IMG/VR virus record: IMGVR_UViG_3300034072_002256
Span: 1 to 64,000 of that record
DNA: 64,000 bases
From: a virus
Reading direction: 5' to 3' (one strand)
Part shown: positions 34,976 through 51,548 of the stretch, piece after piece
How positions within the stretch are numbered: position 1 is the first letter of the stretch
Layout: the number at the start of each line of letters is the position of its first letter
The notes under the pieces: model-generated
Told to the model about the DNA's origin: nothing
What the model saw: only the letters and a program-made list of their open reading frames with translations
Database searches by the model: none
Made by a program: the position numbers and the translations under genes

Positions 34976-36399
34976 GTTTCGCGCAGTGGATAAAGCTACC
35001 GGCCCTCGACCGTTGTTACCTGCTGGAAGTGTCTTATCGCCTTGCTGGCCAGTTGTATGTGCTGCGCCGTTCGACGCATCCGTATCGGACGCACCCTGGC
35101 GATACGCCGGCACTCACGCCATACCCGGACACTATTTTGCAGTTGCCGGAATTTGAACGTGACATGACCGAAGTCTTTGCCGGCTTTAGTCGCACCGGGT
35201 TTGGTGATCTGCAGCTTTTCCTCGATGACGATATCCAGATGCTGATTGACTCCGCCAACGTGGCCGGCATGAGTGTGACGCTGCGCTGTGGTGACATGAG
35301 CTGGCCATTATCAGACTTTGGGGTGGTGCTTTCAGGTGCTCGGGTGGAACAGCTCGATGCAGTCAGTAGTGATACAGCGCGCCTTAGCTTCAAAGACGCG
35401 GCAGCGCTTTTCGATACGCCGGTCCCAAGGGCCACCATCAGCACCGGGCCAAATGCCGGCAAGCCAGTGCCCCTGACATACGGCCGCTGCTTTAACGTGA
35501 GTCCTGAGCTGATTAACGAAGCGACGCGCACTTACCAGGTCCATGATGGCGCGGTACAGGCCATCACTTCGGTGCGGGAAAATGGCCTCGCCATTCCTTA
35601 CACCGCGAACCTCGCCGCCGGCACTTTTACTCTGACGAACAATGCCAAAGGTCGCATTACAGCAGACGTTGATGGCGCGGTGGTGAGCAGTACCTGGTTG
35701 CAGTCAGCCAAACAAATTATTGATGCCCTGATTAGCCGGATAGGCATTGCGCCTTCAACCGGCACACTGCCGGGTTATGCACTGGGCCTTTTTATCGGCC
35801 GGGACCAAACCCTGAAATCTGCACTGGATGATTTGGTGTCATCGGTGGGCGGTTCCTGGGCATTTAACCGGGCAGGCCAACTTGTTTTAACGACTTTTAA
35901 TGCCCCGTTAAACCCAACTGCGATGCTTACGGCAGACGATATCGCTGACGCAAGTCTGTTACCGCGCCGCCGCTTAGCACCTGCCAAAAGTGTGAAGCTT
36001 GGGTATCGGCGCAACTGGACACCGCAGGCTGATGGCCTTGCCGGCAGTGTGCGCGAAACGATGCCGGGACAAGCTGCGCTTTATGAGGCTCAGGAGAGCC
36101 TGGTCACTGCCATTAATCCTGATAACCCGGACTATCCGGATGCGGCGGTTATTAGTCACAGCACCCTGATTGCGAGCCAGGCGGATGCACAGACTGAAGC
36201 AAGCCGGCGGGCAGTTTTAGGTGCAGTTCCCCGGACGGTCTTTGAACTCAGTGCCTTTACCGCACCGCTTGCGATGGAGCTTGGCCAAGTCGTGCAGGTG
36301 ACATATCCGCAGTATTTCGAGGCAGGCGCGCCTGCAGTCATTACCCGCATTGTTGATGTGCTTTCTGACAATACCTGCAAGCTGGAGATTTACCGATGA
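34972..36399 (+). CDS. Tail tip/hub structural protein
   Basis: Follows TMP; GKPVPLTYGRCFNVSP. Confidence 0.7.
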   Translation: MSFAQWIKLPALDRCYLLEVSYRLAGQLYVLRRSTHPYRTHPGDTPALTPYPDTILQLPEFERDMTEVFAGFSRTGFGDLQLFLDDDIQMLIDSANVAGMSVTLRCGDMSWPLSDFGVVLSGARVEQLDAVSSDTARLSFKDAAALFDTPVPRATISTGPNAGKPVPLTYGRCFNVSPELINEATRTYQVHDGAVQAITSVRENGLAIPYTANLAAGTFTLTNNAKGRITADVDGAVVSSTWLQSAKQIIDALISRIGIAPSTGTLPGYALGLFIGRDQTLKSALDDLVSSVGGSWAFNRAGQLVLTTFNAPLNPTAMLTADDIADASLLPRRRLAPAKSVKLGYRRNWTPQADGLAGSVRETMPGQAALYEAQESLVTAINPDNPDYPDAAVISHSTLIASQADAQTEASRRAVLGAVPRTVFELSAFTAPLAMELGQVVQVTYPQYFEAGAPAVITRIVDVLSDNTCKLEIYR

Positions 36400-37238
36400 A
36401 CCGCATCCGGATGCTGGTCAAAAACTTATGGGATATGGCCGCGCTGACGTTGGAGCAGGGCGGTGCTGTCGGGACTTTACCGCTCTCGAATAGCCAGCGT
36501 TATGGCAAATCATTAACTGCAGCAATCACCCCTGTTGCCGGCAATTCAGCGGTAGTTTTCACGTTACCGGAAATGTCTCTGGCCAGTGGCCTGGTGATTT
36601 ACCGGCACTGGCTAAGTAACGCCGGCAAGTGGCGCGTGGAGCTGTTTGATGGCCCGAACGCCACTGGCACGAAGGTCTATGACTCTGCACTTTTGGACGC
36701 TGTGGCGACTAAATCACTTGGTGAGCTGGACTGGCTGGTCGACCCGCTCATAGCAAGTCCCTTTGATGCCTGGCCGTTTAAATTCAGCCAGCATTGGTTC
36801 TCACCGCAGTTTTTTCGCTCTGGGCGTCTCTCGATTTCAGATGCGGATGGCCGGGACGGGTTACATGAGTTTGACCGGATTTACTTAGGTCAGGTGTTTG
36901 AGCCATCGGTCAATTTCAGCTGGGGTGCTGGCCATCAGTGGCAAAGCACAGAGCGTCAGTATGTGACGGCTGCCGGCAGTGTGTTTGCCAATGAGCGCAT
37001 CAAAACCCGCGAAATTAAATTCACGTTGGACCATTTATCAGAGTTGGAGCGGCCGCACTTGTCGGCAGCTATTCGCACGGTGGGGATCTCAAAGGATTGG
37101 TTTATCAGCCTGTATCCGGAAGCCGCCACGGTGAAAGAAATCGAGTACGCCATGAGCTGCAAGTTCACAGCGCTACCCGGCCTTACCAACACTCACTTTA
37201 ACAACTACGCCGCGCCATTCGCGGTACGGGAGGCATGA
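36396..37238 (+). CDS. Tail tip structural protein
   Basis: Synteny; overlapping start. Confidence 0.65.
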   Translation: MNRIRMLVKNLWDMAALTLEQGGAVGTLPLSNSQRYGKSLTAAITPVAGNSAVVFTLPEMSLASGLVIYRHWLSNAGKWRVELFDGPNATGTKVYDSALLDAVATKSLGELDWLVDPLIASPFDAWPFKFSQHWFSPQFFRSGRLSISDADGRDGLHEFDRIYLGQVFEPSVNFSWGAGHQWQSTERQYVTAAGSVFANERIKTREIKFTLDHLSELERPHLSAAIRTVGISKDWFISLYPEAATVKEIEYAMSCKFTALPGLTNTHFNNYAAPFAVREA

Positions 37239-38155
37239 TGACGGCTTTAGTAAAACCCGCCGTTGTTTTTGAACTAACAGACCGGGGCGGAGATTACTTC
37301 GCTAAGCTCCAGGCATTAGCTACCGGTGTGGATACCGCCTTTGAAGCATACAACCAGCAGCTGGCTGCAGCACAAACCGCTGAACAAATTAGCCAGGCGA
37401 CCGCGCAACTGTATCAACAAACGTCTGATTTGGTTGAAGAGGCCCAAGGTTATGTTACTCAGGTTTACAACGCTATTGGTACTGCAGGGAATTCCGCTCA
37501 ATATGCAGCTCAGCTGCTGACTGCCCGGCTTATTGCGGGGGTGCCTTTTAATGGTACGCAAAACATCGTTCTGACAGCTGACAATGTCGGCGCAATGTCG
37601 AAAACTGCCACTGCAGTCACTGATTGGAATAACGCCCTGACAAATGGGGCCTTTTATTCTTTGAGTGGTGCTGCCAACGTGCCCAAAGCTGCGGCAGGCT
37701 GGCAAGGATTTGTTTCAGTGCTAAACGCTGAAAACGTCCGCCAAATCGTCTGGTCAGCTGATGGTCCTGCTGTTGAGATATATAGCCGCTGCGGTGACGG
37801 CACCACACTGGTTTGGGGAGCTTGGGTTTCGCTACGTCATTCTGCGGACCAACTGGATAATACTGACTACATCACAGCCGCATCGTCAATTGCGCGAAAG
37901 GGTGTTGTAACCCGCGCAGCAATTGTTCCTGCTACTGCCTCGGTGACAATCACCATTCCTTCCGGCTACCAGAATAAAGATCGCATCGAATTAGACGTCA
38001 TGGTCCCTGCAGGCCGTCAGATAACTCTGTCGTGTGCACTCAGTATGGATGTTGCAAACGGCACCAATGGCACCAGTCATACCCTGACGGGGCCTGTATC
38101 AGCAACTATTTCCCTCATCAATCGCAGCACATTATGGCAGCTGTTTATTGCCTGA
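37235..38155 (+). CDS. Tail fibre-like protein
   Basis: LLTARLIAGVPFNGTQNIVLTADNVGA fibre motif; DWNNALTNGAFY knob-like segment. Confidence 0.75.
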   Translation: MMTALVKPAVVFELTDRGGDYFAKLQALATGVDTAFEAYNQQLAAAQTAEQISQATAQLYQQTSDLVEEAQGYVTQVYNAIGTAGNSAQYAAQLLTARLIAGVPFNGTQNIVLTADNVGAMSKTATAVTDWNNALTNGAFYSLSGAANVPKAAAGWQGFVSVLNAENVRQIVWSADGPAVEIYSRCGDGTTLVWGAWVSLRHSADQLDNTDYITAASSIARKGVVTRAAIVPATASVTITIPSGYQNKDRIELDVMVPAGRQITLSCALSMDVANGTNGTSHTLTGPVSATISLINRSTLWQLFIA

Positions 38156-38172
38156 TGGCATAGGAGAACGCA

Positions 38173-38577
38173 ATGGAACTTTCAATGTTGCTGGGTGGTG
38201 GAATTAAGAGTAACCAAACAGGTTTCGTCTCAATTTCAAACCCACTATACGGCACCGTAAACGGCGAGGACGGCATCTATATCGATGTAACAATTTCTGC
38301 TGTGGATGTGACCAAATCAATCGCCAATTTTGATGGCAATGTGTTTCTGCGAACGTTAGGAACAAGTAACAGCTCCCTGGGTTTTGGAGTGGATTACATT
38401 CGTGCTCAGACAATTGACAGCAATAATGGCGTCTATCAAGCGCTGCAAAGAGTGCGTGCACGACTTATCAACTCCACCACATTGCGCCTATCAACCATCA
38501 CAAATTTAGCGGCAAGCGAATATACGTTAGGCGACTGCAAATTCATTGGCCGCTGGCAAGTCGTGGAGACCAAATAA
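38173..38577 (+). CDS. Tail fibre-associated protein
   Basis: GGGIKSNQTG...DVTISAVDVTKS...WQVVE. Confidence 0.6.
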   Translation: MELSMLLGGGIKSNQTGFVSISNPLYGTVNGEDGIYIDVTISAVDVTKSIANFDGNVFLRTLGTSNSSLGFGVDYIRAQTIDSNNGVYQALQRVRARLINSTTLRLSTITNLAASEYTLGDCKFIGRWQVVETK

Positions 38578-38578
38578 C

Positions 38579-39094
38579 ATGTTCAGATACGCCATTTTAG
38601 ACGCTAGTGGTTCGGTGATTAGTATCGCTGACTTATCAGGCCCGGTAGACCTTCCAGACTACATCATGCTGAGCGCTGATTCGGATGTGCAGACTGGGGA
38701 CTACTACAACAGGGGCACGGCAGAGTTTAGCCGGCCAGTTCCAATGTTGCCGACGCCGGCACCAAAAATCAGCGAAACCAATCTTGGCCGCAAAATTACC
38801 GCTAATGCATTTCGTGCTCGGTTTGACTGGGATGAGTCTGTGGACTTTGAAAACGCTTTGGCATCAAGTGCAGAGCTTCGGGTTCTGGATAAGCGCCTGC
38901 AGGCCGTTGTTGCCACACATGTTGATTTGGACGACCCGACCTACTCAGCAGTCGCGATGCCGGCATTGGTGACGGCGGGGATCCTAACCTCCGCCAGATC
39001 AGCAGCAATCCTTGCGGCACCCGTGCAGTGGAAAGAATTACCGCCTTCAATCCAGCAGCAGTTCATTGCTGCCGGCTATCAAATCGACGTTTAA
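38579..39094 (+). CDS. Tail fibre assembly-like protein
   Basis: ITANAFRARF...VDLDDP...GILTSARSAAIL. Confidence 0.6.
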   Translation: MFRYAILDASGSVISIADLSGPVDLPDYIMLSADSDVQTGDYYNRGTAEFSRPVPMLPTPAPKISETNLGRKITANAFRARFDWDESVDFENALASSAELRVLDKRLQAVVATHVDLDDPTYSAVAMPALVTAGILTSARSAAILAAPVQWKELPPSIQQQFIAAGYQIDV

Positions 39095-39105
39095 ACAGGG
39101 TTTAA

Positions 39106-39567
39106 ATGATGGATGAATTACAAAAAGTACAGTTAATTTTTGCGCGGGGTCACTCTGTTGGCAGTTATGCGATCCGCGTACGCTACCAGTCGCGCTGGTC
39201 CCACGTAGCCATCATTATTGGCGATGTGGTGCACGAGGCCATCTATCCGGATGGCGTGGTGAAAACACCGCTGCAGGAATTTAAAGACCGTTATGGTGCT
39301 GGCAACTGGGAGATTGCAACCGCATACGCCGCGCCTGGCTGGCAAACTCGGGCCAATAGCTTGCTTGGCCTTGAGTACGATTTCTGGGGCGCCGTTGGCA
39401 TTGGGTTTGGCACTCGCAAACTGGATAACCCGTTTGCGCTTTGGTGTAGCCACCATACGGCCATCATCCTTGGCACTTTACGCCAGGAACGTCTGAACCG
39501 TCTGGCGCCGGAGCATTTGTGGATTGTTACACAGCCGGCAAATGATGCCGCAGGAGTTGCAGCATGA
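39106..39567 (+). CDS. Permuted papain-like (YaeF/YiiX-type) enzyme
   Basis: SRWSHVAI His precedes YDF and WCS Cys. Confidence 0.75.
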   Translation: MMDELQKVQLIFARGHSVGSYAIRVRYQSRWSHVAIIIGDVVHEAIYPDGVVKTPLQEFKDRYGAGNWEIATAYAAPGWQTRANSLLGLEYDFWGAVGIGFGTRKLDNPFALWCSHHTAIILGTLRQERLNRLAPEHLWIVTQPANDAAGVAA

Positions 39568-40253
39568 GCTTACATTCAGTATTGGAGGCCATGCGTGGCC
39601 AGCCATATCCAGTGATCCTCGAAACGTTACGCCAGCAATCAGCACCTGCCATTGGCAAAATCCAAGGCAGCCAGCTGAAACTCCTGCAGTCGTTTATCGG
39701 TGCCACCGGGTTACGTAATCGGTTGGCGAATGCGACTCCGGAACAAGCAGCCGCTGCGGCATCAGTCACAGAAGCCATTCAACCAGCTTATCTGGCGCGG
39801 GAAGACTCATACAGCATCAATCTGGCCGACCCACAGGTTGCGCAGCTACTGATCGATGCCGTAAGTGCTGGCGTTTTGACTGCAGACGAAAAAGCTTACC
39901 TGATCCAACTAGCGACCTATTCAAAGCCACTCTGGCCAAACGTGACACTGCGTGACGTTGTGGCTTATTTCGAACCGAGCCTGGTTGATGTGGGGGATTG
40001 GGTCGAAGTGGAACCGGGCGAGTCTCAGCGGTTACGTTTGAAGTTGGCCGCAGTCACGCCAGAATCCACATATATAGTGGTGCAGATGCAGGAAAACGAC
40101 GGCGAGTGGTCGGAATGGTTCCATGCGACAGCACACCATGGCATCCAGCAGCTGCGCTCATACACCTTTGCGGTGCCTCATAACGGTTTACCGCGCCGGA
40201 TGCGCTGGCGTGGTGGCGAATACCGCATTGACGGCACTGTGACGGCGGTCTGA
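39564..40253 (+). CDS. Hypothetical protein
   Basis: Overlapping ORF with GGAG RBS. Confidence 0.7.
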   Translation: MSLHSVLEAMRGQPYPVILETLRQQSAPAIGKIQGSQLKLLQSFIGATGLRNRLANATPEQAAAAASVTEAIQPAYLAREDSYSINLADPQVAQLLIDAVSAGVLTADEKAYLIQLATYSKPLWPNVTLRDVVAYFEPSLVDVGDWVEVEPGESQRLRLKLAAVTPESTYIVVQMQENDGEWSEWFHATAHHGIQQLRSYTFAVPHNGLPRRMRWRGGEYRIDGTVTAV

Positions 40254-40254
40254 T

Positions 40255-41529
40255 ATGCCTAATGCAGTAACTACTCAAGGCCAAGGCGCAGATGCTTTTA
40301 TTTCAATGCCCAGCTGCACAATCAATGCCGGCACAAACACTGGCATCAGCGGTATTGAGATTGATGTAAAACCTTTAACAGGCAGCGCTGCAGGATTCAT
40401 CAACCTGTTTGGCGTTTCGTCTACCAATGTGACAGCGTTGCGGATAAATACTGCGACACAAACCCTTCAATGGCGATACAGCAGTACGGTTTATCTTGAG
40501 TCTGCTGCGGGTACAGCTCCACTTAATGAGCGTCACAAGTATGGTGCTGAGTGGGAAGAGTCTACTTTATCGCTGTATTTAACTAAAAATGGTGTCCGAA
40601 TTGCTGGGCCATACGTTGCCCCATCTGCAGGCTCTTTGATTACCAATGTTCCGTGGAATCAAATTGGTAAGGTTGGCTCGACTGCACCTGGTGGTGCGAT
40701 GGCATTCGAGCTTTATGGCGTTCGGACCTACGGCAATAACTGCAGCTATCAATCGCAATGGGATGAAACTGGCGCGAGTGGTGCCGGTACTGCTTGGGCA
40801 AATGACTCAGTTGACAGAAATCTAAACCTAACAAGTTTTGCTGGCACATCCAACAGTTGGTGGGTGTTTTACAGCAACCTCTATATCGGTGAAGGCACTT
40901 TCAACGCTATCGCAACAGCGAGCGTTGCACTGACAGGTTCTAAAATTGGCAATGGAAGCATCCCGGCAGTAGTTGCCGCAGCTGTTGCAGGCAACGGCTG
41001 CAAAATTGGTACCGCGCAGCTCAGCACGCCAATTGCTGCCGGCATTGAAATGTCCGCGGTAAAAGTTGGCGTGGCTGAAATGCCAATCGAGGCAAATGCT
41101 GAGGTCGATCTTTACTCCGGCAATCTGTACATCGGAACGGGCACTTTTTCCGTGTCCGCTGACGCGAACGTGACTCTGGTGGGTTCAAAAGTCGGCTGCA
41201 GTGCGGTTGAGTTTGTTGCCGTGGCCACTAGCTATCTGAATGCGACCAAGACAGCAAATAGTATCGCGCCAGTTCCAGCGACATCTGCATTGGCGTTTGA
41301 TGGCTATAAGATTGGATATGCACCAGCTGTTGTACATGCATCTGTCGCCATGACGTTATCAGGTGGTCGCGTAACAAATGAATCCGCGCCTGTAACTGTC
41401 GTATTCATTCGAACATCCAGCAAGTTGTCATACAACGTCAAAACATCAAGTCGCACCATCCACAGCGTCAAAACGACCAGCCGTTACCAATATCACTTGA
41501 AGACTTTTAGCGGAGGCGACCATGCCTGA
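40255..41529 (+). CDS. Putative fibre/adhesin with beta-rich N-domain and ~20-aa repeats
   Basis: Two NLYIG.GTF blocks and repeated K[I/V]G units. Confidence 0.6.
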   Translation: MPNAVTTQGQGADAFISMPSCTINAGTNTGISGIEIDVKPLTGSAAGFINLFGVSSTNVTALRINTATQTLQWRYSSTVYLESAAGTAPLNERHKYGAEWEESTLSLYLTKNGVRIAGPYVAPSAGSLITNVPWNQIGKVGSTAPGGAMAFELYGVRTYGNNCSYQSQWDETGASGAGTAWANDSVDRNLNLTSFAGTSNSWWVFYSNLYIGEGTFNAIATASVALTGSKIGNGSIPAVVAAAVAGNGCKIGTAQLSTPIAAGIEMSAVKVGVAEMPIEANAEVDLYSGNLYIGTGTFSVSADANVTLVGSKVGCSAVEFVAVATSYLNATKTANSIAPVPATSALAFDGYKIGYAPAVVHASVAMTLSGGRVTNESAPVTVVFIRTSSKLSYNVKTSSRTIHSVKTTSRYQYHLKTFSGGDHA

Positions 41530-41851
41530 TCCATTAGTGCAGCTCAGACAGGGTACTGGCGGTGTCATTAACATTGAACACGATATCGATGGCCAACCAA
41601 TTGACGGTATAACAGCCGCTAAATATGAGCTTAGAGACCGAGGCGGCAACGTCTTGCTGACCTTAACAGAAGGTGCAGGCATCACCTGGAAAGATGGGTA
41701 TATCGTCATTTCTATCACAAAAGACCAGTGCAAAACGCTTGCTGGCAATTACGAACATGAATGCGCTGCAGTTGACTTGGCTGGGCGCGATTTAACGGTC
41801 CTTGAAGGCCCCATTAACTTTAAACCACGTAAGACTTGGAGCGAATTATGA
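41522..41851 (+). CDS. BppU-like small structural protein
   Basis: LRQGT...G.PIDGIT..AKYELR...L.GNYEHE...VLEG. Confidence 0.5.
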   Translation: MPDPLVQLRQGTGGVINIEHDIDGQPIDGITAAKYELRDRGGNVLLTLTEGAGITWKDGYIVISITKDQCKTLAGNYEHECAAVDLAGRDLTVLEGPINFKPRKTWSEL

Positions 41852-42201
41852 GCATGTCTGATAAAGCAAAAAACAGGGCGGCGAACGCGATCATTGCAGT
41901 ACAGGCGTCATTGCATAGCGGTGACCCAGGCGCTGATGGCGCAGCCAATGAGCTACCGACAGCAGGTGGCATCTATTCCCGCAAGCCAACTAACTACGGA
42001 GCTGCGGTGGCGGGGAAGCGCAGCCTGCCTGCTGATATTCTTTTTGACACACCACCGGGTTCATCGGTGTCACACTATGTGATTTGGGATGAAGACGGTG
42101 ACGTAGTTAAAATTGGGCAGTTCGCTAAGACAGAAACTTACTCTGGCCAAGGCCAGCACAAGATAAAGGCTATTGGAAGTGAGCTGACTGTCAACGGTTA
42201 A
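41848..42201 (+). CDS. Small virion structural protein
   Basis: SLHSGDPGADGAANE...YSRK...VSHYVIWD. Confidence 0.55.
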   Translation: MSMSDKAKNRAANAIIAVQASLHSGDPGADGAANELPTAGGIYSRKPTNYGAAVAGKRSLPADILFDTPPGSSVSHYVIWDEDGDVVKIGQFAKTETYSGQGQHKIKAIGSELTVNG

Positions 42202-42232
42202 GCCAAACAGTCATACCTGTTTCAGATGAATG

Positions 42233-42255
42233 AAAGCCCCGTTTAAGGGGCTTTT
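42233..42255 (+). terminator. Rho-independent terminator ending the late operon
   Basis: AAAGCCCC-GTTTAA-GGGGCTTTT. Confidence 0.8.
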
Positions 42256-42288
42256 AACTATCTCAAAATAAATAAACCGATTCGTTTG

Positions 42289-42369
42289 GTTTGATAAATT
42301 TGTATCGTTGAGTTTGATAATTTATCAAACCGTGCGGCGCAAATTTATCAAACCGTGCGGCGCGCTACA
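42289..42369 (-). repeat. Prophage 1 attR with transposase-binding sites
   Basis: 22-bp direct repeat AATTTATCAAACCGTGCGGCGC (42319, 42342); opposed GTTTGATAA sites (42289, 42312); CA terminus. Confidence 0.9.
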
Positions 42370-42374
42370 GGATG
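42370..42374 (+). repeat. GGATG target duplication shared by prophage 1 attR and prophage 2 attL
   Basis: ...CTACA-GGATG-TGTAACCC... Confidence 0.9.
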
Positions 42375-42503
42375 TGTAACCCGTCATAGAGTTTGAAAAA
42401 GGATAAGGGAAAAGTGGGATTTGCCGGGAATAGCCGAAAACACGTGGGAGCCTTGGAAAATAAGGCTTTGCGGGTTTTGAAGAAAACTTTTCAGGAATGA
42501 TGA

Positions 42504-42713
42504 GATCGGACGTAAAAAGCGTTAAAGATGAAAAATACTTTCGGACGCTAGAGAATAACCCACATAGTATGAAAAAACGTCCGATTTAAGAAATCGATGC
42601 CTAGCGCGGCTTACAGAACAATACTTATCAAATTATCATAATAAAGTGGTGATCGGACACCAGGATAGATCGGACGTGGGATAACGGAAGGATCGGACCT
42701 GGTATGTCCGATC
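42504..42713. repeat. GATCGGAC repeat array
   Basis: Perfect copies at 42504, 42651, 42668, 42691, 42706 (reverse); partial copies at 42541 and 42578. Confidence 0.8.
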
Positions 42714-42726
42714 CTCAGCTTAAAAA

Positions 42727-43557
42727 CTACTCTTTTGACTTATTTCTGGATCTTGCAGATGACAATGAACGGTAGACTTTATCTAATGATTCATCAGTAA
42801 GTTCAGTCAAGCTCTGCACACCAAATTCACTTAGTTTCGAAACTAGCCAACGCTTCCCGAACTCTGAGTTCGTATTCACTTTGATGTATGCATACTTTCG
42901 ATTTCGCCAAGAAGAATTGTCCGATTTTTCAGCTGCTGTGGTTGAATTCAATCGGCCAATCCACTTCAAGAGATAAGTTTCAGCAGTGGAAAACTTTTCA
43001 AGGGGCAGCAATCGATAAGATGCAACCTTGCAATGAGAATTGAGCGAAGACCAAATAGACCGATATCCCTTCGGCGCTTTCTTCGTGATCTCTTCTAAAC
43101 GAACGACTTCAGCGACTAATTCAGTCAATCTGGAGGCTTGAGATTCGCTAATGTGCTCAATCCCTGGTGAAGTTTTCGCGATTGTGACTTTTTTTAGATT
43201 GTTTGTGACGATGTTATTCACAGTTGATCCGGCTTCTGCCTTCATCAGCAAATTCCCAGAATTCTGTTTTACCACTAATTTAGATTCATTCACCCTGGGG
43301 GGGACTGCAGGCGCATTTGCATCTTCAGCGTCCTGCAGATTAGCGGATTTTATTCCCGTCAGTACGTATTGAACGTCAATTCCATATCCAGCTGATTTAG
43401 CTAGGAGTTCGGCGTCTAAACGACTTTGCCCGATTTCATATCGGCGCAAAGTTTCCGCACTAATTCCAAGTTTGTCAGCAAAATCGCGTTGTGAATATCC
43501 TATCCGGCTCCGTTCTTCAACGAGACGAAGCGCAATATCAGCTCTGTCAAAACTCAT
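42727..43557 (-). CDS. XRE-HTH repressor with non-peptidase C-terminal domain
   Basis: RLVEERSRIGYSQRDFADKLGISAETLRRYE...IDVQYVLTG; no S24 motifs. Confidence 0.82.
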   Translation of the reverse strand: MSFDRADIALRLVEERSRIGYSQRDFADKLGISAETLRRYEIGQSRLDAELLAKSAGYGIDVQYVLTGIKSANLQDAEDANAPAVPPRVNESKLVVKQNSGNLLMKAEAGSTVNNIVTNNLKKVTIAKTSPGIEHISESQASRLTELVAEVVRLEEITKKAPKGYRSIWSSLNSHCKVASYRLLPLEKFSTAETYLLKWIGRLNSTTAAEKSDNSSWRNRKYAYIKVNTNSEFGKRWLVSKLSEFGVQSLTELTDESLDKVYRSLSSARSRNKSKE

Positions 43558-43567
43558 AAAAATCCGT

Positions 43568-43596
43568 TTGACTACCACAATATTGTGGTATATCTT
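43568..43596 (+). promoter_or_regulatory. Early promoter with 18-bp palindromic operator
   Basis: TTGACT-N17-TATCTT; TACCACAATATTGTGGTA (43573-43590) is a perfect palindrome; second inverted repeat CATTGCA-N7-TGCAATG at 43621. Confidence 0.78.
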
Positions 43597-43662
43597 TTAA
43601 TTGAAATCGAAACAAACCTTCATTGCAATTGCAGTGCAATGACATCAAAACGGGTAATTATC

Positions 43663-43935
43663 ATGGACAAAGACGCTATTAAGCAAGCGCTTCATGCCAA
43701 AGGGTTTTCCTTCACCATGATCGCTGAAGCTTTAGGAGTTGGACCGAACGCGGTGTCTGCTATCGCCTCACGAAGAGGCCAATCTAAACGAGTTGCTGAT
43801 GCTATAGCAAAGGCGCTCGAAATGCCGGTTGAGGAAATATTCCCAGATATCGAAAGTTACAAACGTGACAGGCTGCCATGTGGCAAAGAAAAGGATGCCA
43901 AGCGAGCTGAACTAGCCAAGTTATTGGCGAGCTGA
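43663..43935 (+). CDS. Ner/Cro-like HTH regulator
   Basis: IKQALHAKGFSFTMIAEALGV...VADAIAKAL...EIFP. Confidence 0.82.
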   Translation: MDKDAIKQALHAKGFSFTMIAEALGVGPNAVSAIASRRGQSKRVADAIAKALEMPVEEIFPDIESYKRDRLPCGKEKDAKRAELAKLLAS

Positions 43936-43942
43936 GGTCTAT

Positions 43943-46204
43943 ATGCAGGAATGGTTTGTTGCAAACGAAATTGCAGGTCTGCCTGGGTTACCAACTACAG
44001 AGCGGCGTACCCGTGATTCACTCGAAAAGCTTGTTGAAGGCAAGCCTGGGCTAAAGCGAAATCGTGAAGGTACTCGTGGTTTTGAGTACCACTACACCTG
44101 TCTTTCAGTCGAAGCTCAATCCGTATTGCTTGAACGCTCTTTACTGGCAGGCAATTCAGAGAAAACAGTAATTGAAGAAAAATCAGTAACACGCAAGGAG
44201 TGCTCTGATTCAAGGACGCGTGCTGAAGACAAAATTAGCAAGGGTTTGGCCGCTCTTGGTCAGATCGTTGCGCTTGAACCTAAAAAACGAGAGTTAGTTG
44301 AAGCAAAAATTGCTCTTGTTCGTGCTTATGACGACTACCTTGAACAATTTGAAGTCACCCGCAGCAAATGCGCGGGAGAGCGTGCATTCATAGAAAACTA
44401 TGATTTGCTAGTTCCAGACTGGATTCGTAAATCAATTCCTAGCGTCAGCATTAGTACTATTAAACGAGCAAAAAAGGGTATTGAAAGCCACAAAATTGCA
44501 GAGCTGGCCGGAAACTACAAATCTGACAAGAAGTCAGTTTTCGATCTCAATACAGAAATGGCGAATTTTGTTCTGGCTTTGATTACAGCCAAACCGCATT
44601 TCATCAGCAAGCCGAAAACTGTTAAAAACGCGATACAAGTCAAGATTAATGAAGGCTACAACTGGCCAAACGTCTCTAATAGTTCGGTTAGCAGGCATCT
44701 TTCAAAATTAACGAAAACTTTGTCGGCAGAGCTTGCATATGCAACTAACCCTAAGGAGTACAACAACAGCCATCGCCCAATTTTTGCTGAGATGTATAGC
44801 TGGATCACTGGACCAAACCAAGTTTGGGAACTTGATTCCACGCCAACAGATGTTCAGCTCAACGTCGCCGGAAAAGCTCGTAGATATAGTGTCATTGGCG
44901 CAATTGACGTTTTTACGCGGCGAATGAAAGTAGTTTTAATGCCGTCAAGTTCCAGTGAGGGCATTTGTCTGTTACTTCGAAAATGCTTGCTGGAATGGGG
45001 TATCCCCCAGGAAGGCGCTGTAATAAGGACAGACAACGGATCGGACTATGTAAGCAAAACAACTACCGGGCTTTTCAGCATGCTGGGCCTCTCTCAAAGC
45101 AGAGCCAAGGCATTCAGCGGTTGGGAAAAACCATTTATTGAGCGTGCATTCAAAACTATGTCGCACTCATTAATGGAGAAATTACCAGCATATGTGGGGC
45201 ACGATGTTGCCGACAAAAAGCGACTGCAAGAAATGCTCAGCTTCGCAGAAAGTATCGGCGCAAAACGCAAAGAGCGAGATCGCCAACTTCTTGAAATCAG
45301 TCTAACGCCTGAAAGGCTTCAGGCAGCACTCGATGATTGGTTGGAATTTGATTACCACCACCAACCGCACGAAGGCCTTAACAAAAGAACTCCGTTTGAG
45401 GTTTATTCGGAGAGCGGCTATCGACCGCAGTTGCCAGAAAATTCTCATAGTTTGGACATCCTTTTAAATTATGTCGGGACTGCCACAGTGGTTCGCGGCG
45501 GCGTGTCCGCCATGAACGTCAAATTTACATCACCGGAGCTGATGGAACCGATTTGGGACCGAAGAAAAGTACGTGTTTTTCTTGATCCATCAGATGTTGG
45601 TCGAGCAACTTTGTACCCACTTGATAGTTGGGATATGCACGTCGAGGCCGTGAATATCGACCTTATTGGGCGCGACATAGATCCCGCAATGTTCAGGGAA
45701 AGTCGCCGAGAAGCAGCTAAAACTTTGCGCAAGTTCAAACAATCAGCAGCTGCGCTTCAAAAGGATTTTGGTATTGATGATCTTGCAGCATTAGAGCTGG
45801 CACAAAAGAAATTGGCCAATAGCAGTCTAGTTGCATTTAACAAAACTGAAGTGGACATAAACAATCCAGCCATTTCTGCATTGAGCAAAACGGCGACCGT
45901 TTTGATGGATGGTAAGAAAGAACGTACATGGTCTGAAGCAGAGCTAAAAGCCATTGAAGCTAGGAGGCAATCATTAGAGCAACAGAGAGCGGCGCAGGCC
46001 CGCAGGGAAGAAAACCTTTCTGAGCAATCACGTGTAGTACTTCGCACTGAACACGAACAAGCAGAGTGGCTTACCCGCGAAAGCTTGGTTCGGGATCTTA
46101 GCGAGGTCGAAAAAACTTGGCTAATTAAATTCCGCAATACACACGTGATGACGAGAAAACGGCTGGACAGAATTCTAGAAGAAAGCAAGCGCGGAGTCGG
46201 TTAG
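43943..46204 (+). CDS. MuA-like DDE transposase
   Basis: Same DDE motifs as 5362-7584; divergent N-terminal third. Confidence 0.95.
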   Translation: MQEWFVANEIAGLPGLPTTERRTRDSLEKLVEGKPGLKRNREGTRGFEYHYTCLSVEAQSVLLERSLLAGNSEKTVIEEKSVTRKECSDSRTRAEDKISKGLAALGQIVALEPKKRELVEAKIALVRAYDDYLEQFEVTRSKCAGERAFIENYDLLVPDWIRKSIPSVSISTIKRAKKGIESHKIAELAGNYKSDKKSVFDLNTEMANFVLALITAKPHFISKPKTVKNAIQVKINEGYNWPNVSNSSVSRHLSKLTKTLSAELAYATNPKEYNNSHRPIFAEMYSWITGPNQVWELDSTPTDVQLNVAGKARRYSVIGAIDVFTRRMKVVLMPSSSSEGICLLLRKCLLEWGIPQEGAVIRTDNGSDYVSKTTTGLFSMLGLSQSRAKAFSGWEKPFIERAFKTMSHSLMEKLPAYVGHDVADKKRLQEMLSFAESIGAKRKERDRQLLEISLTPERLQAALDDWLEFDYHHQPHEGLNKRTPFEVYSESGYRPQLPENSHSLDILLNYVGTATVVRGGVSAMNVKFTSPELMEPIWDRRKVRVFLDPSDVGRATLYPLDSWDMHVEAVNIDLIGRDIDPAMFRESRREAAKTLRKFKQSAAALQKDFGIDDLAALELAQKKLANSSLVAFNKTEVDINNPAISALSKTATVLMDGKKERTWSEAELKAIEARRQSLEQQRAAQARREENLSEQSRVVLRTEHEQAEWLTRESLVRDLSEVEKTWLIKFRNTHVMTRKRLDRILEESKRGVG

Positions 46205-46272
46205 CGGCCACACCCGCGCTTGCCAAGCAAACCTGTGGTGGTCCCACAGAATTTACATAACGGAGTATATCG

Positions 46273-46998
46273 ATGAAAAACAAAACAGTCGAAGTCAAAA
46301 ATGTGACCCGGACGCAGGAAATGTTCGAGAACCTGAGTTCGCGCAGCATGATCACACCAGGCATAGGTCTTATTCATGGCCCGAGCGGCTTTGGAAAAAC
46401 AACCACAGTCACATATATGTTCAACGAGCTGACGGTGTCGGGCCAGCAACCTTTATATGTGCGCTGTTATGCGACAGATACACCCAGTTCATTTTTAGCA
46501 AGGGTTATGGGGGAACTTGGTGCACAACCAATGTTTCCGCTTCGCAAGATGGTTGATTACGTGGTGCAGGCCATGAACGAACGCAGCCTGGCGCTATTTG
46601 TTGACGAAGCTGATCACATCGTCAGCCAGGCAAAGACGATGGAAACCATCCGCGATTTATACGACAGCACCGAGCAGCCTGTGGTTCTGATTGGCATGGA
46701 AGAAATTGCCCGCCGCATCTCACACCGTAAGCAGCTGTTTAACCGGATCTCTGAATGGGTCGAATTTGCGCCGGCAGACATTGAGGACGTGCATTTGTTT
46801 GCTACTGATTTGATGGATGACCGGGTTCAGGTCGGTGAAGATCTGCTCGACTTTATCCGGCAAAAGTCAGGCGGTGAGGTACGCCGGATTTTGATCGCAT
46901 TAGAAAAAATCGAACGTGCGGCCCTTGCCAGCGGTGAAACCTTTGTCGATTTGCACAGCTGGGGCAACCGCCCACTGTTCCTGAACCATCGTCGTTAA
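46273..46998 (+). CDS. MuB/TniB-like AAA+ ATPase
   Basis: Near-identical to 7656-8381. Confidence 0.92.
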   Translation: MKNKTVEVKNVTRTQEMFENLSSRSMITPGIGLIHGPSGFGKTTTVTYMFNELTVSGQQPLYVRCYATDTPSSFLARVMGELGAQPMFPLRKMVDYVVQAMNERSLALFVDEADHIVSQAKTMETIRDLYDSTEQPVVLIGMEEIARRISHRKQLFNRISEWVEFAPADIEDVHLFATDLMDDRVQVGEDLLDFIRQKSGGEVRRILIALEKIERAALASGETFVDLHSWGNRPLFLNHRR

Positions 46999-47013
46999 TT
47001 GCGGAGCTGGTCA

Positions 47014-47610
47014 ATGACTAAACACGAATTAGCTTGGGACAAGATGAAGCAAATGGATCGCTTCACTGTTACCGACGTGGCTAATGCGGTTGAGATGGAC
47101 CTCGAAGAATGTCGCAAATCAATAAAACGCCTTGAAAAATCAGGCTATCTGGAAATCGTTTCGGGAATTGGTGTGGCTGGAAGGCCGTATTTTTATCGGG
47201 TGAAACCTGAGGTTACCACCACACCACAGTTTGGCCGTGGCGGCACAAGTGGACTGAAAAAAGTCCGCTCAGGCATGAATGGACAGCAGCTGATTTGGAA
47301 CGCATTGCGGATAAACAGAAAGTTGACTGTTGGGACTGCAGAGGCAGTTACAAAACTAAATTCAAGAACGATTTATCGCTACCTGAATGACCTCGAAAAA
47401 GCTGGTTATGTGAAGTGTCAGCGGCATGACAGGGTTGGTTCGAACTTCGACCGGACTGGTGTGCAGAACATTTGGAAACTGATCCGTGAGACAGGTCCCA
47501 AAGCGCCAATTTTGCGCAGAGGCAAAGGGTTTTGGGACCAGAACGAAGATAAGTTTTATTCCTTAGATGGTGGAAAAACTGTTGGAGGCCGCACGGATGA
47601 AGTGGCTTGA
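47014..47610 (+). CDS. Tandem winged-helix protein
   Basis: Near-identical to 8397-8993. Confidence 0.8.
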   Translation: MTKHELAWDKMKQMDRFTVTDVANAVEMDLEECRKSIKRLEKSGYLEIVSGIGVAGRPYFYRVKPEVTTTPQFGRGGTSGLKKVRSGMNGQQLIWNALRINRKLTVGTAEAVTKLNSRTIYRYLNDLEKAGYVKCQRHDRVGSNFDRTGVQNIWKLIRETGPKAPILRRGKGFWDQNEDKFYSLDGGKTVGGRTDEVA

Positions 47611-48094
47611 AGTATTGAGGGACCAGGTCGGATTGAACGGTCAACGGCCTGTCGCTGAAAAGCTGGGTGTCAGTAACACAGTGATCAGCCAGGTCGTCAA
47701 TGAAAAATACCCTGGCGATATGGGCCGAATTCAGGCTCTGGTGGAAAGCGTGTACATGAGCAAATCAGTGTTGTGTCCGGTGCTTGGTGAAATCGCCTGG
47801 CATACCTGCCAGATGCACCAGAAAAACACTCACACCGGCAATCCGACCAAGCTGCGCTTGTATCGGGCCTGCCGCAGTGGCTGTGAAAACTCGGATTTGC
47901 CAGTGACGCAAAACATCCAGTTAAACCCGAGCGCAACGCTTAATCGCAGCCTGAAGGTTTACGACGCAGATGCAGTGATCGCCCGGTTAAAGCGCCAGGT
48001 GGAATCCGATGGCGGCGGGCCGGCTCAATTAGCTGAGTTGCTGCAATCAGAACTGAAGAATCTGGCGACCAAACTGAACAGAACGGACAAATGA
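47597..48094 (+). CDS. HTH protein with Cys-rich segment
   Basis: Homologue of 8980-9477. Confidence 0.75.
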   Translation: MKWLEVLRDQVGLNGQRPVAEKLGVSNTVISQVVNEKYPGDMGRIQALVESVYMSKSVLCPVLGEIAWHTCQMHQKNTHTGNPTKLRLYRACRSGCENSDLPVTQNIQLNPSATLNRSLKVYDADAVIARLKRQVESDGGGPAQLAELLQSELKNLATKLNRTDK

Positions 48095-48366
48095 CCATGA
48101 AAAATACTAACGCTATCAAGCTGGCGCTCCGCGACGCCACCAACGCCGTGAACCTGTTGGATAAACGCGGCTACAAAGTGATTGGGCTGAGCATGAATCA
48201 AGCGCAACCAATCATCACCATCAGCACTCCACCGGCCAGCAAAACGCCAAAGGGTACAGAGATCCGCTGTATCCGTGAGCGTGGCGCTGCGCCAGAAAGA
48301 ATTATGGCCGCGCCGTTTAACGGGTGTTTAGTCACCTGGAATGCCGACGATTCGGCCATGCAGTAA
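48091..48366 (+). CDS. Hypothetical early protein
   Basis: Homologue of 9474-9749. Confidence 0.75.
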   Translation: MTMKNTNAIKLALRDATNAVNLLDKRGYKVIGLSMNQAQPIITISTPPASKTPKGTEIRCIRERGAAPERIMAAPFNGCLVTWNADDSAMQ

Positions 48367-48397
48367 CCCGCCAACAACCATCGCTATTGGAGACCCC

Positions 48398-49027
48398 ATG
48401 GATACTTCTACACATGCAATTCCTGCCGGCTACTGGCAGAACGCTCAGGGTGCGTTAATCCCTGTGGAAATGGTGAAGCCGATTGACCGGGCACGGAATG
48501 ATTTAGTGCATGAACTGGTGCAAAAGGCCAATGAATTGAGCCAGTTAATGGCCAAGTTTAAGACTTCAGCTTTTGCCGATATCGCTGCTTTTGTTGACCT
48601 GTCGCTGGAGCAGTACGACACCAACGTTGGCGGTAAAAAGGGCAACCTGACGCTGTACAGCTTTGATGGCCGCTACAAAGTGCAGCGCGCTATTCAGGAA
48701 CACCTGCAATTTGATGAACGGCTGCAGGCGGCGCGGGCACTGATTGACGAATGCCTGGCTGACTGGACGGCCGGCGCTGCACCGGAATTAAAAGCCATCG
48801 TGGCCAACGCCTTTAACACTGACAAGGCCGGCAACATCAGCACCAGCCGCGTGTTAGGCCTGCGTCGCCTCGATATCAAAGACGAGCGCTGGCTTAAAGC
48901 TATGACCGCCATTGGTGAAGCGGTGCAGGTTGTCGGCAGTAAGGCTTATATCCGGGTGTATGAACGCATCGGCGATTCAGAAATGTACCGGCCTATTCCT
49001 CTGGATATCGCGGCGGTGCAGTTATGA
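48398..49027 (+). CDS. DUF3164-like protein
   Basis: Homologue of 9781-10410. Confidence 0.85.
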   Translation: MDTSTHAIPAGYWQNAQGALIPVEMVKPIDRARNDLVHELVQKANELSQLMAKFKTSAFADIAAFVDLSLEQYDTNVGGKKGNLTLYSFDGRYKVQRAIQEHLQFDERLQAARALIDECLADWTAGAAPELKAIVANAFNTDKAGNISTSRVLGLRRLDIKDERWLKAMTAIGEAVQVVGSKAYIRVYERIGDSEMYRPIPLDIAAVQL

Positions 49028-49227
49028 CAGCACCAGCACGTAAGCCAGCCCCACGGCCTGACGATGAAGCCATCCAGCGTGAAATTGCGGTGTCATTGGC
49101 CATCAGGGAACAGTACGTCACTAATCATCCAGGTGACACTTTTGAGCAAGGTGTTGCAGCCGCATTGCTCTGGGTACTCGGCAATGGCGAACTGCCAAAC
49201 GGGGAGGCCAAGGGATGGATGAACTGA
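49024..49227 (+). CDS. Hypothetical protein
   Basis: Homologue of 10407-10610. Confidence 0.7.
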   Translation: MTAPARKPAPRPDDEAIQREIAVSLAIREQYVTNHPGDTFEQGVAAALLWVLGNGELPNGEAKGWMN

Positions 49228-49442
49228 CCAAAGCCTTATGGGAAATGCGCCAGCACATGATTTCACTCTGTGTGCTTTACAAGCTGGACGTATGGCCGCA
49301 AGTGCCCGGCTATGAATGCCTGATGAAAGGCATCGCCAGTACAGCCGGTATCGACGAAGACACACTCTGGAACTGGTTCGAAAACACTTGCGAGAGCGTT
49401 GAACAGCTGCAGGAGTTTGTCGAATTTCATAAAGCAGCATGA
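49215..49442 (+). CDS. Acidic hypothetical protein (reduced to MDELTKA* in prophage 1)
   Basis: 75-aa ORF ending at the ribozyme. Confidence 0.7.
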   Translation: MDELTKALWEMRQHMISLCVLYKLDVWPQVPGYECLMKGIASTAGIDEDTLWNWFENTCESVEQLQEFVEFHKAA

Positions 49443-49443
49443 A

Positions 49444-49512
49444 GCGAAACAGTCCGGTATTGATGACCGGGCTGTCTATCCAGCGTCGTGGCTGGGTACT
49501 GATGAGCAGCGG
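49444..49512 (+). ncRNA. Type II hammerhead ribozyme
   Basis: Same core and stems as 10623-10691; cut after 49476. Confidence 0.9.
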
Positions 49513-49521
49513 GAGCATTCA

Positions 49522-49941
49522 ATGATTAGCAAAGAGCAGTGGGCGACAATCGAAAAACATTTCAGTGAGCGAGTGTTTCACACTGAAAAATTCCAGTTGG
49601 GCGAAACTTTATTATCCGTCAGCAAGACATTTGTCGAAAAAAACAAACTCGGCTTAGTGGTTTACATAGACGGGGTTATTCAACCGTCCCAAGGAATTCA
49701 ATCCAGCAGTTTATTTAACCCGCTCACAAGTCAGGTGTGGTGCAAACGCACAAAGCATCTTTACTCACCGGCAAAGAAACAGAAGCTCATCAACGAGTAT
49801 GGCAAGCGTCGGATCAAACAGTATTTTCCGGATTTGGATAAAACCTATTCATATTTCTCTCCACTGTTTACCAGTGAAAAAACGCTCATTCGGCAGTTTA
49901 AAAAATTGGATGGGTTAAGTGTTGTCGCCGAGAGCGAATAA
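49522..49941 (+). CDS. Hypothetical basic protein flanked by hammerheads
   Basis: GGAG RBS, MISKEQWATIEK..., 139 aa; absent from prophage 1. Confidence 0.78.
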   Translation: MISKEQWATIEKHFSERVFHTEKFQLGETLLSVSKTFVEKNKLGLVVYIDGVIQPSQGIQSSSLFNPLTSQVWCKRTKHLYSPAKKQKLINEYGKRRIKQYFPDLDKTYSYFSPLFTSEKTLIRQFKKLDGLSVVAESE

Positions 49942-49997
49942 GCGAAACGCCAATTGGCGTCTATCCAGCGTCGTGGCTGGGTACTGATGAGCAGCGA
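49942..49997 (+). ncRNA. Type II hammerhead ribozyme (alternative stem III)
   Basis: GC-GAAA-CGCC-AATT-GGCG-UC; same stem I and CUGAUGA; cut after 49961. Confidence 0.9.
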
Positions 49998-50011
49998 AGA
50001 GGTAAGCAGTT

Positions 50012-50578
50012 TTGCAGACGAAAACATCAAAGCAGCATTTGATAAAGATGCTCCACATTGGCAAAAGCCAACTGCACATGGCCGACGAAAGCTATCGGGC
50101 GCTATTGGCCCACCACGGTAAAGGCAAAACAAGTAGCACTCAGCTGACCATTGCAGAACTGCAGGCTGTGCTGGATGCCATGGTTAATTTGGGTTTTAAG
50201 GTCGTTAAAAAGCCGGTTAAACCGGGGCAAAAACGCTTAAGCCCAACCAGTAGCGATGGCCCGCAAGATATCCGCGCAGTGATCCGCGCTGTTTGGGTGT
50301 TTATGGCTAAGGCCAAATTTCTGAACGACGGCAGTGAAACCGCTTTGAATAGCTGGGTGCAACGCATGACCTCTGAAATGAATGGCGGCATGGGTGTGGC
50401 TGAAGTTCAGTGGCTCCATGATGGCATGGCTGTGAAGGTGCTGGAGTCCTTAAAGCGCTGGTGTCGGCGTGAGATGTTCGACGCTTTGCGTTCTGACGGT
50501 CATGAAATCCACCCGCAAGCCAGTTACAGCCAGGTGCTGTCGAAATGGCAACGAATTTATGAAGGGCAGAGTGCATGA
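50012..50578 (+). CDS. gemA: Mu gp16/GemA-family protein
   Basis: Homologue of 10706-11272. Confidence 0.85.
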   Translation: MQTKTSKQHLIKMLHIGKSQLHMADESYRALLAHHGKGKTSSTQLTIAELQAVLDAMVNLGFKVVKKPVKPGQKRLSPTSSDGPQDIRAVIRAVWVFMAKAKFLNDGSETALNSWVQRMTSEMNGGMGVAEVQWLHDGMAVKVLESLKRWCRREMFDALRSDGHEIHPQASYSQVLSKWQRIYEGQSA

Positions 50579-51057
50579 AGTTAGGCCGCTGTCCCGTTTG
50601 TCACAGTCACATTCAGCTGGATGCATTGATCCAGGATGAAGCCGGCCGGCAGTTGCTTGGCCTGATGTCAAAGCTGGGTTATCAGCTGGCGCCAGCCCTT
50701 GTGAGTTATCTGGGCCTGTTCAGGCCAACGAAGCAAGACTTATCCAATGGCCGTGCCTTAAATCTGGCGCAGGAAACACTGGCCCTGACATCTAACCAGC
50801 CGTTACTGGCCGAAGCACTGCGCGAAACCGTGCAAAGCATTCACAACAAACGGCACCAGGGCGAAAACAAGCCGCTGGCCAATCACAACTATTTAAAGCG
50901 GGTGATGGAAGCCAAAGCGCAAGTGCCGGTAGCCAACCGTTCGCCCAGTATCGAACTGAAACAACAGCACCAGCTGTCACCGGCGGAAGACCGCAGATTA
51001 TATGAAGAGCGCATGCTGCAGTTAGGCGGCCGTATATTTACCAAGGTGGAACCATGA
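50575..51057 (+). CDS. Conserved Mu-like hypothetical protein
   Basis: Homologue of 11269-11751. Confidence 0.8.
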   Translation: MKLGRCPVCHSHIQLDALIQDEAGRQLLGLMSKLGYQLAPALVSYLGLFRPTKQDLSNGRALNLAQETLALTSNQPLLAEALRETVQSIHNKRHQGENKPLANHNYLKRVMEAKAQVPVANRSPSIELKQQHQLSPAEDRRLYEERMLQLGGRIFTKVEP

Positions 51058-51476
51058 GCGAACAGCAGTTAGACGCCTTTTCGACACCAGAAGAGCTGCA
51101 GGATTTACTGCAGCAACTGGAGAACTTGCCGGACGACCAGCGCCAGGATGTGGTGAAACGTATTCCGGCAATGCTGCAAAGTCTGATGGCTCTGTTTACC
51201 AGCGAACTGCGCAGCAAGGGAGCTAAGGATCCAGAGCGACTGGCAGAACACCTGGTGATTTGTATGGCGAACTACTTTGGTGGGATGCAGCTGTATTTAC
51301 CGCGCAACGACAAGCTGGCGCTGGAGCTTCGCAACATCCGGATTTATCAGCAACACCGGGGCGGTAACACAGAACAGCTGGCCCGCCAGTACGGCCTGAC
51401 GGCAATTCAGATTTATCACATTGTTCGGGAACAGACTGTCGCTGAGCGGGCGAGGCGGCAGATGGGACTATTTTAG
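51054..51476 (+). CDS. Mor/C-family activator
   Basis: Homologue of 11748-12170. Confidence 0.9.
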   Translation: MSEQQLDAFSTPEELQDLLQQLENLPDDQRQDVVKRIPAMLQSLMALFTSELRSKGAKDPERLAEHLVICMANYFGGMQLYLPRNDKLALELRNIRIYQQHRGGNTEQLARQYGLTAIQIYHIVREQTVAERARRQMGLF

Positions 51477-51548
51477 AGACGCGATGTGGTTGAGTCTTTT
51501 AAATGTTTTCCGTTATAGTCACAAAATTGACCATGCAAAGGAAAGCTA

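Follow-up and report, generated by a model that had tools for sequence, protein, structure and literature searches.

The locus analysed here raises the question of how two different Mu-like prophages came to lie side by side, in one orientation, at a single five-base target in a rep gene, and whether the second insertion was guided by the target sequence, by the surrounding DNA or by the phage already in place. Phage Mu itself is the standard textbook example of insertion that is both near-random and subject to target immunity. The window, meaning the whole stretch of DNA analysed, is made up of the first 64 kb (64,000 nucleotides) of a viral-collection record that is 75,273 bp long.

Anatomy of the array and its support by reads

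The layout was read directly from the sequence: the rep gene on the minus strand, GGATG, prophage 1 (3793-42369, TGTA...TACA), GGATG again, and prophage 2 (from 42375). The first copy of the 5-bp target duplication (3788-3792, plus strand) is followed by the left tip of prophage 1, TGTAACCC.... The middle copy (42370-42374, plus strand) is common to both tips; it stands between the right tip of prophage 1, which ends in ...GCGCGCTACA at 42369, and the left tip of prophage 2, which also begins with TGTAACCC.... The first-pass annotation had described two elements in tandem, in one orientation and with only a shared, base-exact pentamer between them, and this reading of the layout confirms it.

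Prophage 1 (3793-42369, plus strand; 38,577 bp) is a complete-looking Mu-like siphophage by its gene content and TGTA...TACA tips. The tips are inverted repeats (TGTAACCC... against the reverse complement TGTAGCGC...), and a GTTTGATAA-type site is found in both tips at equal distance. The right end (42320-42369, plus strand) contains 21-bp direct repeats at 42320-42340 and 42343-42363, which are putative transposase sites R2/R1, and terminates in the tip GCTACA; the right end of a prophage in Rheinheimera sp. 4Y26 has almost the same sequence. Pfam and PHROG matches revealed an S24 repressor (4214-4954, minus strand) and a Ner-like protein (5121-5369). MuA (5362-7584) carries the Pfam domains HTH_Tnp_Mu_1, rve and Mu-transpos_C and is followed by a B ATPase of 241 aa (7656-8381; Pfam AAA_22/TniB), behind which lies a conserved putative DNA-binding protein (PHROG 2030). 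PHROG matches also identified a Mor-like protein (11748-12170), terminase (17355-19055), portal (19067-20635), MuF-like protein (20619-21944), protease (23436-24539), major head protein (24949-25842) and a tape measure protein of 1951 aa (29120-34975), and the regulatory and head set of a Mu-like phage (repressor, Ner, Mor, portal, MuF, protease and major head) is thus found in prophage 1. A megablast comparison of prophage 1 with a phage collection and a single-protein scan of genome contigs gave no match.

Prophage 2 (42375-64000, plus strand, continuing to the contig end at 75,273) is colinear with prophage 1. The record stops within its tail genes, and its right end and right flank lie outside the contig. 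An HTH repressor (42727-43578, minus strand) was identified from the ORF list and Pfam. The MuA protein of 753 aa (43943-46204) is 61% identical to that of prophage 1, and B (46273-46998) was assigned by its position in a stretch with 83% nucleotide identity to the corresponding stretch of prophage 1. Pfam found the Mu DNA-binding domain, the rve core and the Mu C-terminal domain in both MuA proteins, and an AAA+ B lies beside MuA in both prophages, as an AAA_22/TniB match in prophage 1 and by the 83% stretch in prophage 2. The nucleotide identity between the two prophages falls from 83-93% across the early region to 64-77% across the late one. The description of two different Mu-like phages therefore holds, since the elements are colinear yet range from 64 to 93% nucleotide identity. 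Tips accompanied by 5-bp duplications complete the resemblance to Mu, with GGATG on both sides of prophage 1 and with ATTGG and ACTCT in two relatives described below. A low-GC cassette of two genes also separates Mor from the late genes in both prophages. In prophage 1 this cassette matches the defence system PD-Lambda-5 A+B (12243-14561; A, 482 aa, 1e-139; B, an adenine methyltransferase, 3e-127), and its homologues in prophage 2 (51549-53867) were assigned from 93% nucleotide identity to the prophage 1 stretch.

The frequency of GGATGTG is unremarkable (11 matches against 8.2 expected); the improbable part is its position, not its occurrence. By our estimate for a 4-Mb genome, a random second insertion in the same orientation into either duplicated pentamer has a probability of ~2.5e-7. 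Chance was rejected as the cause of the base-exact stacking. Models of recombination or duplication were also rejected, since they do not produce a base-exact tip-to-tip joint between different phages.

The junction was checked with Logan contigs of public runs over 32400-52399. Part of the junction stretch was present in 20 public runs, and most of it in four, which come from one subsurface/soil metagenome study. Contigs of two runs from one study, X1 (depth ~340; 42346-46341) and X2 (depth ~10; 42340-46341), cross the junction with zero mismatches, so that the junction is supported by reads; the source sample is possibly among these runs. In X1 the depth of prophage 1 equals that of prophage 2. 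This run also contains a second version of the right end, which has an extra A behind 42264 (depth 320/610 there) and is unlike prophage 1 upstream. It reads CA-GGATG-T-CGCGGCTGG..., and beyond GGATG and T it continues into CGCGGCTGGTTAAGC...; of 30 bases in the continuation, 27 agree with the rep leader of an intact island, and the frame ...TSRD/ILKKYLSD is kept. This second version is taken to be the right end of prophage 2, and with that assignment the full array reads rep-GGATG-prophage 1-GGATG-prophage 2-GGATG-rep leader. The right flank predicted for prophage 2 in the first-pass annotation, CA-GGATG followed by the 5' part of rep in frame with ILKKYLSD, was thus found on the X1 contig.

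The final ~110 nt are common to the two right ends and cannot be phased with 31-mer contigs, and the pairing of prophage 1 before prophage 2 is taken from the assembled contig; under any phasing, a Mu right end plus GGATG directly abuts the left tip of prophage 2. The possibility that one site has different occupants in two strains was rejected, because a right end, and not rep, precedes that left tip. An artefact of assembly or phasing would leave prophage 1 alone in rep, the right end before prophage 2 coming from another copy or strain and being joined through the ~110 nt. Such a misjoin is favoured by the two-in, two-out repeat that these nucleotides form in the 31-mer graph, by the metagenomic nature of the sample and by the contig break within prophage 2. 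It is contradicted by the right end plus GGATG that every phasing places before prophage 2, in two runs and at full depth, by the equal depth of the two prophages, and by the presence of GGATG at both exits of the repeat, which is expected for a tandem and would otherwise be an unexplained coincidence. Among the explanations considered in this study, an artefact is given the least credence.

Similar phages were found on other contigs. A 79,619-bp contig carries the exact MuA of prophage 2 plus a MuA like that of prophage 1, and a 596-kb contig carries a MuA like that of prophage 1. The search of viral contigs yielded a 5.3-kb fragment and one contig that stops at the right tip, without flank. 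In a metagenomic phage resembling prophage 1 (MuA 90% identical; IMGVR_UViG_3300034682_000235 (L165) / _000385 (L001)) the contig stops exactly at the right tip, a pattern expected if flanks are variable, as they would be for a phage that is packaged or is actively transposing.

The interrupted rep gene and its island

The interrupted gene (2301-3792, minus strand; 497 codons) encodes a P2 gpA-like rolling-circle replication endonuclease (Pfam Phage_GPA, 8e-81; PHROG 91, annotated as 'nicking at origin of replication', 4e-147), and the insertion cuts it off from its 5' leader. The Phage_GPA catalytic domain is present, and like gpA of phage P2 the protein matches Phage_GPA and PHROG 91 over the catalytic region. 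Unlike gpA, it comprises ~510-580 codons without the usual N-terminal ~150-200 residues and is encoded on a ~6-kb integrase island beside ssrA. Downstream of rep lie two small island ORFs of 91 and 80 aa (1756-2284, minus strand, from the ORF list), which gave no significant family match, and the tyrosine integrase of the ssrA-linked island (401-1495, minus strand; Pfam Arm-DNA-bind_2, Phage_int_SAM_3 and Phage_integrase). In Rheinheimera the tmRNA 3' end recurs as a 26-bp copy ~6 kb away, on the other side of the island. This copy, together with the tmRNA gene beside the rep leader, identifies the host element as a ~6-kb ssrA-integrated island. The first-pass annotation had placed a P2-type rep gene on another mobile element; the gene is indeed P2 gpA-like, whereas the element is this island and not a P2 prophage.

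Comparison of the rep codons that differ from Rheinheimera revealed 47 synonymous against 25 non-synonymous changes, and the conservation reaches and passes the insertion point. By this codon-wise conservation the rep frame is coding on both sides of the insertion point. The frame is open and conserved codon by codon up to the tmRNA terminator in three islands (L131, L132 and L134) and in the rebuilt Rheinheimera site. No ATG, GTG or TTG start for rep is conserved among the leaders compared, a candidate TTG included; completion or expression of the gene may be confined to the excised circular form. As to cargo, the Rheinheimera island carries an AbiL-like pair, AbiLi ATPase plus AbiLii/RloB (L129:7815-9045, L056:3-776), and the window island has a different ORF in the same place (1-378, minus strand) without a match. 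The small integrase-plus-Rep element appears to swap defence cargo.

The closest relative in a genome is the prophage of Rheinheimera sp. 4Y26, whose MuA is 65% identical to that of prophage 1. Its left flank is homologous to that of the window (integrase 68% identical in amino acids, rep region 74% in nucleotides). This prophage of 36,994 bp is bounded by a perfect ATTGG duplication and lies in the homologous island, displaced by 125 bp from the counterpart of the site in the window and 76 bp from the tmRNA gene. Rejoining its flanks restores an open frame of 583 codons, which reaches a terminator hairpin and the 3' end of the tmRNA gene 136 bp past the insertion. The probability of such proximity by chance is estimated by us at ~1e-4 per comparison. 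The island is unoccupied, with an uninterrupted leader, in four related genomes, so that four of the six islands seen are empty. One of these intact islands (L131) has the empty site ...CGCGA-CATCC-TC..., that is, the pentamer CATCC on the rep strand. The ~200-bp leader that separates rep from the tmRNA terminator is highly conserved; within it lie the terminator hairpin, a palindrome of 16 bp and several direct repeats. A scan of viral contigs for the leader motif gave no match.

These features raise the possibility that the structured leader acts as a chromosomal hot spot, similar to the BIME-adjacent hot spots of phage Ab30, and that both phages landed independently on one base without any involvement of the resident end. 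A strong, point-like hot spot could produce the same base and orientation in this way. The independent insertion 125 bp away in another species, the conservation of the leader and its palindrome and repeats are in line with such a hot spot. The D3112-type phages Ab30 and 2P1 have hot spots of 300- to 3000-fold beside hairpin-forming repeats, where a single base received as many as 27 of 142 local events (PMC5977238). In the Ab30/2P1 pattern insertions cluster ~55-60 bp from the hairpin and occur in both orientations; the two insertions here lie ~17-42 and ~87 nt from the hairpin/palindrome, and one orientation was seen. Against the hot spot, the Rheinheimera insertion is 125 bp off and not on the same base, and most of the islands seen are empty. 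The remaining evidence on the hot spot comes from related prophages.

Insertion sites of related prophages

The left tip TGTAACC, which is conserved, was located in 36 related loci. No consensus of the target pentamer was found among these 36 relatives, and most left flanks are unrelated. Two close relatives (L002 and L003) adjoin a ferritin-like gene and a PIN/MazE pair; the isolate run X7 contains the left end of prophage 2, with 1 mismatch in 830 nt, beside a different flank; and the rep protein matched the flank of no relative besides Rheinheimera sp. 4Y26. There is thus no fixed insertion site for the relatives of prophages 1 and 2.

Insertion is not random either, because the Rheinheimera hit 125 bp away is joined by several pairs of independent insertions that have a neighbourhood in common. 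A Mem_trans transporter gene of Aeromonas received three independent insertions, 66 and 407 bp apart, in different species (L016, L019 and L079). Two independent insertions lie within or just after a dsbA-like gene of Shewanella, 164 bp apart and again in different species (L059 and L084). In Vibrio, Photobacterium, Shewanella and metagenomes, six related prophages stand between 20 bp and 1 kb away from a tRNA-Asn gene (L012, L073, L068, L020, L075 and L076); two of these insertions are independent and ~13 bp apart, and the others are 86 bp to 1 kb from tRNA-Asn. The Mem_trans, dsbA-like and tRNA-Asn neighbourhoods all speak for local hot spots.

These results bear on the proposal, made in the first-pass annotation, that the phages possess a sequence-directed pathway aimed at rep. 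In a Tn7-like pathway of this kind, a phage-encoded selector would recognise a P2-type rep gene, insert at a fixed base and in a fixed orientation, and so disable the island. The use of one pentamer and orientation twice, the presence of a relative in the same gene region of Rheinheimera sp. 4Y26, and the short B ATPase (AAA_22/TniB-like) followed by the PHROG 2030 protein are what such a pathway would predict, and disabling the island could pay, given the AbiL-like defence pair of the Rheinheimera island. The mapping of flanks does not support the proposal. The 36 relatives lack a conserved pentamer or flank and sit mostly at unrelated sites, among them the near-identical prophage 2 in X7 and the two close relatives at unrelated genes, and four islands are empty. 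Only Rheinheimera sp. 4Y26 falls in the same gene region, and its insertion is displaced by 125 bp, where a Tn7-like element would have one attachment site at a fixed distance. A TnsD/TniQ-type selector was likewise absent from the Pfam matches of the prophage 1 repressor, MuA and B and from the PHROG matches of the ORFs behind B, although a remote homologue might escape such matches. A rep-directed selector is very unlikely to account for the array.

Analysis of the relatives revealed further pairs in which one prophage lies on or in the end of another. Upstream residents were recognised by their tips, since the tail proteins of prophage 1 had no homologues in the flanks of the other loci. 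In a Shewanella genome (G001) this phage family is represented by just two left tips and two right ends. Prophage B of this genome (53505-90956), bounded by a perfect duplication of ACTCT, separates the two terminal repeats in the right end of prophage A and lies 26 bp inside the tip of A and in the same orientation, and a tail gene is found just upstream of the A/B junction. Prophage A (G001:C1; 16467, 90987) has the outer flanks CTATT and AGAAA without duplication and a frameshift or stop in its MuA gene, and 13 nt of the right tip (GCGATCCGCTACA) are repeated at 53474-53486, just inside its right end. These features of prophage A look like signs of older rearrangement, and the history of the locus appears more complex than described here.

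In the metagenome contig L005, a right tip ending in ...GCGCTACA is followed by 4 nt and then a left tip, a spacing that fits a 5-bp target starting on the last base of the resident (~1 bp inside). In run X5 a left end like that of prophage 2 abuts an end-site motif of the GGTTTGATAA type, which is compatible with several end contexts, and the flank of L081 resembles a right-end site without a clear tip. The offsets from the resident right tip are 0 in the window, about -1 in L005 and -26 in the Shewanella genome, always in the same orientation. By our estimate, a right tip of the family lies at most 30 nt upstream of 3 of ~39 left ends, against ~0.3 expected from the 7-mer alone. A chromosomal hot spot does not explain the Shewanella and L005 stacks, which lie in or on the end of a resident, and the uniform orientation of all stacks differs from the Ab30 hot spots, which show no orientation bias. 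Taken with the evidence from the leader, a hot spot acting alone is unlikely to be the explanation.

Genomes were also surveyed for lysogens by a MuA profile search, the Vibrionaceae being covered by a sample. The survey found 18 lysogens in 179 Shewanellaceae genomes, with one double lysogen, which is the stacked pair; 12 lysogens in 103 Aeromonadaceae genomes, with no double lysogen; and 18 lysogens in the 401 Vibrionaceae genomes, with two double lysogens (G676 and G648). The sole double lysogen among the 30 lysogens of Shewanellaceae and Aeromonadaceae is therefore stacked. The two Vibrionaceae double lysogens showed no clear stacking on their small or separate, fragmented contigs. Full-text searches of the literature gave no description of end-to-end stacking of Mu-like prophages.

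Proposed target choice at the resident end

The chemistry is ordinary Mu transposition, as shown by the tips and duplications. We consider it somewhat better than even (probability about 0.55) that the array arose by ordinary Mu-type transposition in which the second phage inserted at offset 0 from the tip of the first, within a locally favoured region. The first phage, probably prophage 1, would have entered the rep frame at its 5' leader, by transposition, on the ~6-kb island beside the tmRNA gene and created the GGATG duplication. The second, probably prophage 2, would then have targeted the five bases just outside the terminal CA of the resident, in the same orientation. Both events would be the work of a DDE transposase making a 5-bp staggered cut, and their outcome would be GGATG-prophage 1-GGATG-prophage 2-GGATG. 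The incoming transposase may bind the end repeats of the resident, and the bound, bent end DNA may be captured as a target, the reverse of what target immunity does in Mu. Such binding is to be expected because the ends carry transposase-binding repeats and the right ends of prophages 1 and 2 are nearly identical. A target at offset 0 is the duplicated pentamer of the resident itself, and the base-exact 'reuse' therefore calls for no recognition of GGATG. The ssrA-rep leader is perhaps locally favoured, which would account for both the first hit and the independent Rheinheimera hit. We infer the arrival order and the molecular cause of the attraction to ends from the sequences compared.

Guidance by the resident phage end had been named in the first-pass annotation as an alternative. 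It fits the data best, because the other pairs are stacked inside or at right ends, where no chromosomal site can act; its molecular cause is the conjectural part. Stacking is not universal, as the two Vibrionaceae double lysogens on fragmented contigs indicate, and this counts against guidance by ends. So does the target immunity of Mu, which predicts avoidance of DNA that contains transposase sites. On genomic evidence, the stacking at 0, about -1 and -26 departs from such immunity.

A more general suggestion is that this family, in Rheinheimera, Shewanella, Aeromonas and Vibrionaceae, actively homes to the termini of resident relatives, in an inverse of immunity, and to a few chromosomal landmarks, among them tmRNA and tRNA-Asn flanks, maybe through the TniB-like B and the DNA-binding protein behind it. 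We regard this as possible, though doubtful.

Comparison with known systems places the two phages close to Mu and to the D3112/B3-type siphophages (Ab30 and 2P1). They have in common a MuA-type DDE transposase with a Mu DNA-binding domain and an AAA+ B, a repressor, Ner, a Mor-type late activator, Mu-type head genes, a long tape measure protein, TG...CA tips with repeated sites, and 5-bp duplications. The B protein described here differs in being short (241 aa) and TniB-like. Mu avoids DNA that carries its ends, whereas here relatives lie on or inside the end of a resident in the same orientation. Ab30 and 2P1 are known to have strong local hot spots, as in the neighbourhoods reported here, and 0.4% of their events fall within phage copies; the target immunity of Mu is summarised in the same source (PMC5977238). 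The hot spots of Ab30 differ from the present stacks in lying beside BIME hairpins without orientation bias.

Tn7-like arrays at attTn7 resemble the present array in their single orientation, in the duplicated target shared by neighbours and in an AAA+ regulator of the TnsC/TniB kind. They differ from it in that no TnsD/TniQ-type selector was found here, the relatives have no common attachment site, stacking also occurs inside the end of the resident, and it is the resident tip, not a host gene, that determines the position. In the IR-targeting of IS30 and the tandem dimers of IS21 and IS30, an end bound by transposase is the preferred landing place, and the abutted ends lie a few bases apart. 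The transposases of these end-targeting insertion sequences are unrelated to MuA in detail, and their junctions connect copies of a single element and act as reactive intermediates, in contrast to the stable array that two different phages of 38 kb form here.

The anatomy of the array is solid; for the mechanism of target choice and the order of arrival, our account is a reading of sequence. If relatives do land on or in the ends of residents and re-use a few hundred bases across species, target choice in transposable phages would be open to reversal or tuning. This would bear on the formation of poly-lysogens and on competition, as a newcomer that splits the end of a resident disables it, as well as on the origin of prophage arrays and mosaics and on Mu-type systems as insertion tools.
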